This document shows positions 1,798 to 43,621 of a DNA stretch of 64,000 nt, one piece after another; the first letter of the stretch is position 1; each line of letters starts with the position of its first letter. Below the pieces are notes generated by a model. That model was not told the origin of the DNA and did not search any database. It saw nothing but the letters and a program-made list of their open reading frames with translations. A program made the translations under genes and the position numbers. The stretch comes from an uncultured Methanosarcinales archaeon (GTDB lineage Archaea; Nanobdellota; Nanobdellia; Woesearchaeales; JAGWAF01). The stretch spans positions 357 to 64,356 of the forward strand of contig CAZQZJ010000002.1 in the NCBI GenBank assembly GCA_964597775.1. Reading direction: 5' to 3'.

Positions 1798-1916
1798 AAA
1801 TTATATCAAATCACTTTAATTATCAGATGTTTTACCATTATTAAAGTGATTTGATTATTAGGAAATAACCTTACTTTCGTTTGTGAAATATCCTAAAATT
1901 AAGGTTATTTCCTATA
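1798..1916. repeat. Double-hairpin intergenic repeat, copy 1 (stems tcaaatcactttaat/attaaagtgatttga and aggaaataacctta/taaggttatttcct)
   Basis: Near-identical copy at 27054-27172; both stems conserved while the first loop differs between copies. Confidence 0.6.
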
Positions 1917-18646: not shown

Positions 18647-18850
18647 GTACTTGTTAAGCCAGGTGTTATACAGAGGCGCTGGCGTGGGACGTCAAGATGC
18701 GAGCACTATTATGAAGTTCTACGCAAACCCGAGGAGGTTCCAGATAGGAGGGTTTCTTTGAATAGTTCTGTGAAGTGCGAGCGACGTCCCATTTTTGCGC
18801 AAGCAAAAATAAGCCAGTGCCTCTGCAATAGGTGTGGGCTTAACAAGTAC
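18647..18850 (+). ncRNA. Structured repeat element E, copy 1: 14-bp terminal helix gtacttgttaagcc/ggcttaacaagtac plus internal helices. Candidate ncRNA or MITE-like element
   Basis: Second copy at 35380-35638 with conserved core and compensatory stem change (cagaggcgctggc pairs gccagTgcctctg here and gccagCgcctctg in copy 2). Confidence 0.45.
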
Positions 18851-18867
18851 GTCATCTCCAAACCTTT

Positions 18868-26272: not shown

Positions 26273-26281
26273 CCATTGATG

Positions 26282-26380
26282 TCTCAAATGGGTTCTATCC
26301 CGATGCTCTGCATCGGATATATTTGCCAATTTGAGATTAAAAAATACTCCTGGGCTCTTCCCAGGTTGGGATTTTTTATT
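26282..26380. repeat. Intergenic module X, copy 1: TATA-like GGATATATTT(minus AAATATATCC) + A6-hairpin(cctgggc/gcccagg)-T6
   Basis: ~90% identical copy at 43521-43621 immediately upstream of tRNA-Leu; partial copy at 31806-31900. Confidence 0.6.
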
Positions 26381-26384
26381 CATC

Positions 26385-26957
26385 TTAGCACGCTCCAGTT
26401 GCACTCTGCGTTCCTTGTGGGTAGAAAATCTTTTTCCACAACTCAAGTTCTTGCTGGATCTGACTTGAGTTGTAGCCCTTTGTAGTCATGAGTTTAGCCA
26501 AACCAAACATTGCTACATGGTGGCCGCATTCGCAATTATCTTTTGCTTGTAGCTGTTTAACTCCGCAACAAGGCAATTCTACATCAAGGCCAACAAATAT
26601 CCTTTCTTGAGCCAAGGTAGGAATAATTTCTTTTGCATCTTTGAGCAGTTGATCATATCCTGCAGTATCCATTGTTATGCCGTATTCAGTCATCTCGCCT
26701 GTGGCTTTAGCATCATCTATCCCTCCACAGCCAGGGCCGTCCATTTCTGATAATTTTGGATGATGTGTTTTCATCATCTCTTCATTAGAACTAAATCCTT
26801 CGGTTGACATGTCCCCAGCATTTCCTTGTTGTGTCTTAAGAACTACTGCGTCACTTGCTTCCTGGCGACCTGCCCATATCACTGTGAAGATTAGGCTTCC
26901 AACCAGGAATAGTAATACAACAATACCGATTATCTTCTTGTTTTCCATGATAACCAC
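26385..26957 (-). CDS. Membrane-anchored Cys-rich protein (GPGCGG, PCCG, CECGHH motifs)
   Basis: N-terminal TM, multiple Cys/His clusters, first gene of putative metal-handling operon. Confidence 0.45.
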   Translation of the reverse strand: MVIMENKKIIGIVVLLFLVGSLIFTVIWAGRQEASDAVVLKTQQGNAGDMSTEGFSSNEEMMKTHHPKLSEMDGPGCGGIDDAKATGEMTEYGITMDTAGYDQLLKDAKEIIPTLAQERIFVGLDVELPCCGVKQLQAKDNCECGHHVAMFGLAKLMTTKGYNSSQIQQELELWKKIFYPQGTQSATGAC

Positions 26958-27053
26958 TTATCCGCAGCAAGCATGTCCTTGTGTTTTGGCATCTTTATTT
27001 TTGCGTTTGTTTCTTTTTTCCATATAATGACCTCCATTGGTTTATACAAATAT

Positions 27054-27172
27054 AATTATATCAAATCACTTTAATTATAGGATATTTTTCCCAGATTAAA
27101 GTGATTTGATTATTAGGAAATAACCTTACTTTCATTTTTGAAATATCCTAAAATTAAGGCTATTTCCTATAG
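27054..27172. repeat. Double-hairpin intergenic repeat, copy 2
   Basis: Matches 1798-1916; stems identical, loop 1 differs. Confidence 0.6.
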
Positions 27173-27324: not shown

Positions 27325-27819
27325 TCATTTGAGTATAACTGCATTTGTCATGCCGCGTCTTCTGCGTTCAATAAGGTTTTTTCCTTCAAGTTTATCCAGG
27401 ATGCGCGTGATCTTAACCTTGGAAAGTGCTGTCTTGGTTACCAAGTCGCTTTGAAATATCATACCTTCAGATTGGCGCAGGATGTCAAATATCAATGCTT
27501 CCTCGCCATCTAAACTTTTGGTAGTAACAGCAGCTTTCTCACGTATCTTCTCTTGCGGCTGTTTCTTAAGATATAGTAAAAGTCCTACAATAAACAAGAA
27601 GGTAATCACTCCCAAGCCGATAAATTTAGGCAATGCCAATCTGTTGAGTTCTTGATATGGGCAAGTTAATCCTTGTTGGTGAACACATTCACCCTCTGGT
27701 CCAGTGTCATGGCCAGCAAGTAAGGCTTTTTCAGCAGAGTTAATATAGTTAAAACCAATAATAAGTAATATAGTAGCGATTGTCATGTTTGCAATTCCAA
27801 AAAAGCGGAGAGTTTCCAT
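27325..27819 (-). CDS. Membrane-anchored winged-helix (MarR/TrmB-like) transcription regulator
   Basis: Two TM segments followed by C-terminal wHTH (LVTKTALSKVKITRILDKLEGKNLIERRRRG). Confidence 0.5.
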   Translation of the reverse strand: METLRFFGIANMTIATILLIIGFNYINSAEKALLAGHDTGPEGECVHQQGLTCPYQELNRLALPKFIGLGVITFLFIVGLLLYLKKQPQEKIREKAAVTTKSLDGEEALIFDILRQSEGMIFQSDLVTKTALSKVKITRILDKLEGKNLIERRRRGMTNAVILK

Positions 27820-31786: not shown

Positions 31787-31805
31787 TCTTCGGTGATTGC
31801 TTATG

Positions 31806-31900
31806 TTCTGCATTGGATATATTTACCAATTTCGGGTTTAAAAAATAAGAATTATGCTCCCTAAATGTGAGCAGATCTGTTGCGGTTCTAATTTTTTATT
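31806..31900. repeat. Intergenic module X, degenerate copy 3 (TATA-like part conserved, hairpin diverged), in convergent gap
   Basis: ttctgcattggatatatttaccaattt...tttaaaaaata...aattttttatt aligns to X1/X2. Confidence 0.4.
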
Positions 31901-35379: not shown

Positions 35380-35638
35380 GTACTTGTTAAGTCTGGTGTT
35401 ATGCAGAGGCGCTGGCGTGGAACGCAACAATGTCGCATTTCTACCTTGTGCACAGCGAAAGCCGAAGGACTCGATTGTGCCAAGATGCGAGCACTATTAT
35501 GAATTTCTACGCAAACCTAAGGAGGTTCCAGATACAAGGGTTTCTTTGAATAGTTCTGTGAAGTGCGAGCGGCGTTGTGTGTTTGCGAGTGCAAAAACAA
35601 GCCAGCGCCTCTGCAATCGATGGGGGTCTAACAAGTAC
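35380..35638 (+). ncRNA. Structured repeat element E, copy 2 (with ~50-nt internal insertion relative to copy 1)
   Basis: Terminal helix gtacttgtta.../...taacaagtac, conserved 90-nt core, compensatory stem change vs copy 1. Confidence 0.45.
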
Positions 35639-35640
35639 GT

Positions 35641-43430: not shown

Positions 43431-43514
43431 TGCAAGGAGCAGGATTCGAACCTGCGAACGCACTAAGCGAACAGCTCTTGAGGCTGCCCCGTTTGACCAC
43501 TCCGGAATCCTTGC
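43431..43514 (-). tRNA. tRNA-Leu (anticodon CAA), class II with long variable arm
   Basis: Hand-folded: acceptor GCAAGGA/UCCUUGC, anticodon loop CUCAAGA, 15-nt variable arm, T-arm GCAGGUUCGAAUCCUGC; CCA not encoded. Confidence 0.85.
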
Positions 43515-43520
43515 ATGGTT

Positions 43521-43621
43521 TCTCAAATGGGTTCATACCCCATATGCTCTGCATAGGATATATTTACCCATTTGAGATTAAAAAATACCCCTGGGCTCTG
43601 CCCAGGTTGGGATTTTTTATT
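43521..43621. repeat. Intergenic module X, copy 2, immediately upstream of tRNA-Leu; contains the probable tRNA promoter TATA
   Basis: ~90% identity to 26282-26380 including the A6-hairpin-T6 structure. Confidence 0.6.

Follow-up and report, generated by a model that had tools for sequence, protein, structure and literature searches.

A TA-flanked double-hairpin repeat of 111 bp in groundwater DPANN archaea, very probably a miniature mobile element

Two intergenic blocks of repeated DNA, each able to form a pair of hairpins and each lying shortly upstream of a gene, raise the question of whether their stems serve the host, as a structured RNA or an operator, or belong to a piece of DNA that moves. 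The window, i.e. the whole stretch of 64,000 nt analysed here, has 36–40 % GC and contains an archaeal RNase P RNA and a ribosomal-protein operon; the homologs of its TBP and MarR proteins come from sources labelled Woesearchaeota or Nanoarchaeota. A repeat search of the window, followed by pairwise alignment, identified a direct repeat of 119 nt (1799–1917 and 27054–27172) with 92 % identity (109/119), whose similarity drops sharply at either end. A previous reading made from the sequence only had proposed a two-copy repeat of ca. 118 bp, which is indeed present, one base away from where it had been placed. Copy A (plus strand) is situated between the minus-strand gene tbp (2042–2614) and mcm (up to 1679), and copy B (plus strand) between a minus-strand gene of the MarR family (27325–27819) and an ORF ending at 26948. 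As had been noted, both have the same orientation and lie between minus-strand genes, upstream of a gene start (122 nt from the start codon for copy A and 108 nt for copy B). We argue below that the repeat is very probably a non-autonomous mobile element of the MITE type, non-coding and 111–112 bp long, with imperfect terminal inverted repeats of ca. 31 nt and two near-perfect hairpins, that inserts at TA.

The element proper, whose limits were set from family alignments and from the comparison of filled and empty sites, spans 111 bp in both copies and has a TA on either side (Table 1). Hairpin 1, with arms ATCAAATCACTTTAAT and ATTAAAGTGATTTGAT, has 16 bp and no mismatch in either copy, and hairpin 2, with arms TAGGAAATAACCTTA and TAAGGTTATTTCCTA, has 15 bp. 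Both stems had been described as perfect and as 15 and 14 bp long; two stems do exist, but these lengths are too short and hairpin 2 of copy B contains a mismatch. Nor are the two sequences of loop 1 completely different, as had been claimed: 9 of 16 positions are identical, and the loop accounts for 7 of the 10 differences between the copies. The folding energy was well below that of shuffled sequences for copies A and B on either strand (z = −7.4 to −9.3), with none of 200 shuffles being as low. Each element comprises four copies of a 16–19-bp motif in alternating orientation, and no ORF of at least 40 aa is confined to the element.

Table 1. Positions of the two window copies and their parts, of related palindromic families and of nested insertions (window numbering for copies A and B; locus:positions elsewhere).
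Feature	Position	Strand	Description
Left TA flank, copy A	1802–1803	.	Target-site duplication; read from sequence
Copy A, 111 bp	1804–1914	+	TATCAAATCAC...GGTTATTTCCTA; covariance model 113.8 bits
Hairpin 1, copy A	1805–1855	+	Perfect 16-bp stem 1805–1820/1840–1855, 19-nt loop
Hairpin 2, copy A	1859–1914	+	Perfect 15-bp stem 1859–1873/1900–1914, 26-nt loop
Right TA flank, copy A	1915–1916	.	Target-site duplication; read from sequence
Left TA flank, copy B	27057–27058	.	
Copy B, 111 bp	27059–27169	+	Covariance model 113.4 bits
Hairpin 1, copy B	27060–27110	+	Perfect 16-bp stem 27060–27075/27095–27110
Hairpin 2, copy B	27114–27169	+	15-bp stem 27114–27128/27155–27169, one A.C mismatch 27123/27160
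Right TA flank, copy B	27170–27171	.	
Other palindromic family, Woesearchaeota contig	L030:8254–8361		
Other palindromic family, Woesearchaeota contig	L089:2391–2497		
Other palindromic family, Woesearchaeota contig	L046:319–426		
Other palindromic family, Woesearchaeota contig	L015:7213–7317		
Other palindromic family, Woesearchaeota contig	L006:3200–3445		
Other palindromic family, Woesearchaeota contig	L065:3036–3085		
Other palindromic family, Woesearchaeota contig	L066:2225–2272		
Nested insertion	L014:77–287		
Nested insertion	L070:1818–2026		
Nested insertion	L046:1–280		
Nested insertion	L043:5563–5875		
Nested insertion	L021:5551–5996		

The sequence-only reading had proposed a genome-wide search for the stems; exact-word scans and profile searches of MAGs and metagenomes recovered dozens of copies across many genomes. 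The 20-mer at the junction of the hairpins occurs in 14 contigs from six species-representative MAGs, whose taxonomic labels are those of their depositors: the Woesearchaeota MAG RIFCSPHIGHO2_02_FULL_33_21 (7 contigs), a MAG labelled Aenigmatarchaeota (4 contigs), two further Nanoarchaeota/Nanoarchaeia MAGs, another Woesearchaeota MAG and one MAG labelled Methanosarcinales. In metagenomes, a 19-mer taken from this element's left end matched 82 contigs, of which ca. 45 carry the full element according to nhmmer or the covariance model, the rest being chance matches or related variants. The family is thus present on ca. 45 further contigs, in at least six other groundwater DPANN MAGs and many metagenomes, with an identity of 77–92 % between MAGs and a GC content of 21–30 % in the element and of 31–46 % in the host contigs. 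The junction 20-mer had no viral match, none of the 13 viral matches to the left-end 19-mer carries the element, and a BLAST search against plasmids and phages yielded no match. Many copies are located at contig ends; among them, five independent short assemblies of the window's population (L118–L122) stop 195–210 nt past the stop codon of the MarR gene, inside copy B. This is the expected behavior of a dispersed repeat, which breaks short-read assemblies.

All copies share a conserved block, 5′-TATCAAATCAC...TTATTTCCTA-3′, with a TA before and after it. The word used for searching metagenomes imposes the left TA, whereas that of the genome scan does not, and the left TA was present in all 15 copies from the latter; the right TA, which no search pattern imposed, was present in 25 of 26 distinct right flanks. 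The target context approximates Y-TA-R: a T precedes the TA in ca. 85 % of the sites, while the base after the right TA is G in 17 cases, A in 8 and T in one (purine in 25/26), so that the flanks are not perfectly symmetric. The ends themselves are imperfect terminal inverted repeats of ca. 31 nt, starting with 5′-TATATCAAATCACTTTAAT..., the outer 31 nt being 81 % complementary in copy B (27057–27087 and 27141–27171) and ca. 71 % complementary, by hand count, in copy A; across the family, the terminal 19 nt match at 16 positions. Additionally, the outer sides of the two loops mirror each other: loop 1 has AATAATCGGA there and loop 2 has TCCGAAAATT, and the motif AATWWTCGNA occurs at both places in inverted relative orientation.

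Sites with and without the element could also be compared. The sequence GAGAAATGCGTTGAT-TA-GTGTAAAG (also written GAGAAATGCGTTGAT-TA-GTGTAAAGAATTACGC) is uninterrupted in loci L065 and L022 and has a filled counterpart in L031 and L080, which reads ...GAT-TA-(element)-TA-GTGTAAAG; likewise, five loci have ACTAAATGGAAT-TA-GTTTTCGAAC without the element, which is inserted at this TA in L015, L056 and L076. From these paralogous sites it follows that each insertion adds the element plus one TA. Because TA also forms the first and the last two bases of the element itself, a duplication of this dinucleotide is formally indistinguishable from an insertion beside a TA without duplication. The search for target-site duplications around the copies, which had also been suggested, thus revealed a TA on either side, and the filled and empty sites back it.

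The host sites of the element are often other small palindromic repeats, which also occur free of it, and the element is in turn interrupted by others. At least three unrelated hairpin families share one insertion site, the TA of GGAAA-TA-ACTTT within the 5′ arm of hairpin 2 (L014/L094, L070/L095 and L046/L081), another hairpin element is inserted at the TA of the linker (L043, L054), and in L021 inserted elements are themselves interrupted by further ones; the inserted elements have two or more hairpins. That one TA out of ca. 14 is used repeatedly suggests a target specificity beyond the dinucleotide.

ORFs span none of the copies, the element being always intergenic, and all classes of relative gene orientation were observed; the adjoining genes are unrelated and of housekeeping type, including those for enolase, a class II aminoacyl-tRNA synthetase, TGT, iPGM, CTP synthase and a radical-SAM protein. 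Given these unrelated neighbors and the varied orientation elsewhere, the shared orientation and promoter-proximal site of the two window copies are best read as a coincidence. The tbp-mcm spacer can be followed in relatives of the window's organism. In a sister genome (Hainich H52, with a TBP 91 % identical) this spacer has 232 nt and contains a copy of the subfamily in the opposite orientation, flanked by C-TA...TA-G and with stems that differ from those of the window at three pairs, all of them compensated; this copy may reflect an independent insertion or an inversion in situ. Relatives with 85 % TBP identity have a spacer of 215 nt and no copy. The spacer of the window, with 362 nt, comprises ca. 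119 nt of ancestral sequence, the element with one TA (113 nt) and two hairpin repeats (1740–1801 and 1939–2006). For copy B, the closest homologs of the neighboring MarR protein are 57–58 % identical.

The two hairpin repeats that flank copy A have outer stems ATTTCAGAAT/ATTCTGAAAT and GAAAACTGACCA/TGGTCAGTTTTC and enclose small GC-rich inner hairpins (CCGCAGC-TCT-GCTACGG and CGCAGC-TTG-CTGCG). The same plan, with a variable outer stem and an inner ...GC-TTGC-GC... hairpin, is seen in L043, L012 and L014, and no close sequence relatives of either repeat were found among the element-bearing loci compared. In the sister genome, a gene for an RVT_1 reverse transcriptase (361 aa) with small flanking ORFs is located just upstream of tbp (L112:1680–2765 and L113:626–1711), a position occupied in the window by EMC3-like and secY genes. 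An apparent insertion of 260 bp splitting mcm in an ENA contig (L001:9627–9886) turned out to be a scaffold join with a run of N and was discarded as not biological.

We read the repeat as a MITE on the following grounds: it is present in multiple copies across many genomes, has TA flanks and inverted-repeat ends, shows filled and empty sites as well as nesting, and is not linked to any particular gene. The sequence-only reading had itself stated that many copies bounded by TA or another short duplication would favor a simple MITE, and it is dozens of copies with TA flanks, together with filled and empty sites, that were found. The element would insert at TA dinucleotides, preferentially in the context Y-TA-R, leaving a TA on either side, and would rely for its movement on a transposase that acts in trans and is encoded elsewhere. 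Its landing sites would be intergenic DNA and, very often, the inside of other small palindromic elements, and it would have spread through groundwater DPANN archaea, in part horizontally, copies A and B probably representing two insertions of one local subfamily. Any effect on tbp, mcm or the neighboring operon would then be incidental; for example, the TATA-rich ends may come to lie beside the promoter of a small ORF downstream of copy B. There is in fact a putative ORF of 21 codons, MEKRNKRKNKDAKTQGHACCG, between copy B and an ORF of 187 aa (26958–27023, minus strand), with GGAGGT 7 nt upstream and a TATA-like box beside the end of the element.

As for the enzyme, a DDE transposase of the IS630/Tc1-mariner type appears the likeliest candidate, an assignment that we make tentatively. 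TA duplication is the hallmark of these transposases (ISY100, PMC2170065), and IS630 elements are present in archaea (PMC13343696). Neither the window nor ca. 0.7 Mb of related DNA yielded an autonomous partner combining these ends with a transposase gene; the long-range pairs of terminal motifs consisted solely of single-hairpin modules and of cross-pairs between separate small elements. Likewise, clustering of the ORFs from 56 element-bearing loci and a Pfam search with ten neighboring genes yielded only housekeeping genes and no transposase. Additionally, the inner arms of both hairpins show conservation as well as covariation with the outer arms, and a plain model of a DDE transposase binding the ends requires neither.

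Across 20 distinct copies, 99.1 % of the stem cells are paired and 18 of the 28 stem pairs never vary, the invariance of hairpin 1 being in part a selection effect of both search words. In hairpin 2, both bases of two pairs are replaced, G-C by A-U in six sequences and U-A by C-G in two. The more diverged relatives L036, L041, L071 and L112 either keep the arm of hairpin 1 or change it with compensation, and have stems for hairpin 2 that are different yet complementary. Hairpin formation is therefore maintained in this group of elements, beyond what a plain end-binding transposase explains. The earlier choice between selection on structure and a MITE consequently receives a split answer: the stems do stay paired, with compensatory changes, but a host RNA gene finds no support, since conserved promoters, Rfam matches and associations with particular genes are all lacking, and the paired stems fit the requirements of the mobile element itself.

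The covariance model also matches families unrelated in sequence, of ca. 105 nt, that have two perfect stems of 11–17 bp and are bounded by TATA, and versions with a single hairpin (ca. 48 bp) and with four hairpins also occur. In Woesearchaeota contigs, such families (Table 1) are bounded by TATA and have one, two or four perfect hairpins of 11–17 bp, several of them with AATWWTCGNA in the loops. It is conceivable, if rather doubtful, that all these form a DPANN-wide superfamily of TA-bounded single (ca. 48 bp), double (ca. 105–112 bp) and quadruple hairpins with unrelated stems, in several families with AATWWTCGNA loops, whose hairpins would be recognised by the mobilising machinery and whose members would home preferentially into one another and be transferred between DPANN lineages. 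If true, such structure-dependent mobilisation would be new to archaea and comparable to the 'enigmatic' SMR-A repeats of Haloquadratum.

Paired hairpins near the ends also bring to mind a derivative of the IS200/IS605 family reduced to its ends (PATE), in which the hairpins would be the LE and RE recognised as single-stranded DNA by a Y1 (HUH) TnpA, and the element, ending in TATA, would have been inserted without duplication 3′ of a short target that ends in TA. Mobilisation as single-stranded DNA would account for the hairpins, which are two, similar, sub-terminal and kept paired by compensatory changes. Nevertheless, hairpins and loops show inverted instead of direct symmetry (AATAATCGGA in loop 1 versus TCCGAAAATT in loop 2), whereas IS200/IS605 ends read on the same strand, and the feet of the hairpins are only 1–3 nt from the ends, leaving no room for the guide tetranucleotides or the longer 5′ distance that the description of PATEs entails (PMC3119063). 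Insertion beside a TA is formally the same as TA duplication, and the T that precedes the TA in ca. 85 % of the sites makes the flanks somewhat asymmetric, as would suit a PATE, but the target is invariant at TA only and not over 4–6 nt, and a purine follows the right TA in 25/26 flanks, a constraint not called for by insertion 3′ of a target. IS200/IS605 is the most widespread IS family of archaea (PMC13343696) and terminal-only PATEs of ca. 52 bp are known in Haloquadratum (PMC3119063); against this, tnpA or tnpB were not found near any copy. On balance, we consider an origin as a PATE improbable.

A small structured RNA gene, or a cis-regulatory RNA with two structure-selected stem-loops acting on the downstream gene, is very unlikely. 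The predicted fold is very stable on either strand, which could suit an RNA, but an equal fold on both strands is what a DNA palindrome gives. Stem conservation combined with variation in the distal loop regions would likewise agree with an RNA, yet the stems are conserved in sequence and not in pairing alone (18/28 pairs invariant), and copies split by other elements persist. Although copies A and B both lie ca. 110–120 nt upstream of a start codon, the family has unrelated neighbors in every relative orientation. The TATA-like sequence present ca. 30 nt upstream of several copies elsewhere is expected by chance in AT-rich spacers, and conservation ends exactly at the flanking TAs, so that no promoter travels with the element. 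For the same reason, and because the flanks differ between insertions, a candidate sRNA with its own promoter was dropped, and a promoter-like flank shared by L006 and L011 merely reflects an orthologous locus. Finally, no Rfam family matched at its gathering score, the best sub-threshold match having 22.8 bits against a cut-off of 50. A pair of palindromic operators in double-stranded DNA, recognised by a regulator of the host (for example, the MarR-family protein encoded next to copy B), is hardly credible: four 16–19-bp motif copies in alternating orientation and the location of copy B between a MarR-family gene and the downstream operon would agree with it, but the same sequence lies beside unrelated genes in many genomes with no linked regulator, is inverted in the tbp-mcm spacer of the sister genome and absent from it in other relatives, and shows TA-bounded insertion and nesting, which are not properties of operators.

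Other repeated sequences were observed in the course of this work. An intergenic repeat in two copies (18647–18852 and 35380–35640) consists of a block of 160 nt with 87 % identity and another of 45 nt with 91 % identity, either copy being upstream of a minus-strand gene. A repeat of ca. 105 nt (43516–43621) abuts a tRNA gene (43431–43514, minus strand) and recurs 17 kb away (26277–26380), with 94 % identity over 78 nt and overlapping the predicted start of an ORF, with a partial third copy at 31802–31844; these copies may represent a common promoter or leader or, alternatively, the termini of an integrated element. An ORF-free stretch of 2 kb beside a copy of the element in L018/L016 was neither rRNA or another Rfam RNA nor a hairpin array.

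Among known systems, the Correia elements of Neisseria, the ERIC/MITEEc1 elements of enterobacteria and the RUP elements of Streptococcus pneumoniae (IS630-Spn1) are imperfect palindromes that end in inverted repeats and have a duplicated TA at their flanks. Like the element described here, they are ca. 100–150 bp long, non-coding, intergenic and present in multiple copies; it differs from them in its archaeal host and in having two separate perfect hairpins instead of a long imperfect one, the likeness being one of behavior. In Sulfolobus, the MITE SM1 is linked to an IS of the IS630 family. MITEEc1 has been classed under IS630 (PMC11602168), and the repeats of pneumococci likewise form clusters and nest in each other, as reviewed in PMC10969869. 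The Sulfolobus MITEs SM1 to SM4, with 25–44 copies (PMC10969869), resemble the element in being archaeal, short and multi-copy and are moved in trans by resident IS transposases, but they belong to a different phylum, have different sequences and have not been described as having a modular double-hairpin architecture.

In behavior, the element most resembles, among archaeal repeats, the SMR-A of Haloquadratum walsbyi, which are ca. [quoted passage not shown] Compared by description only, both target palindromic elements and nest, but the TA-flanked, inverted-repeat ends set the element apart from SMR-A, which are reported to make no target duplications, and from PATEs, which lack inverted terminal repeats and have a target of 4–5 nt (PMC3119063). 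A census of prokaryotic MITEs placed a woesearchaeal genome among the most MITE-dense of the archaea (PMC11602168). No description of this particular family was found in the literature, and we regard it as a previously undescribed member of a well-known kind of element, the TA-duplicating palindromic MITE.

In genome annotation, it is advisable to mask the 111-bp blocks and related sequences as mobile repeats, so that they are not mistaken for sRNA genes or operators, or for parts of the promoters of tbp, mcm or the neighboring operon. More generally, the tiny, streamlined genomes of DPANN archaea carry active and partly shared miniature transposable elements that nest, break assemblies and cross lineages of different GC content. 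Identifying the enzyme that moves them, and the reason for their perfect hairpins, would be a modest but real gain for the biology of archaeal mobile elements.
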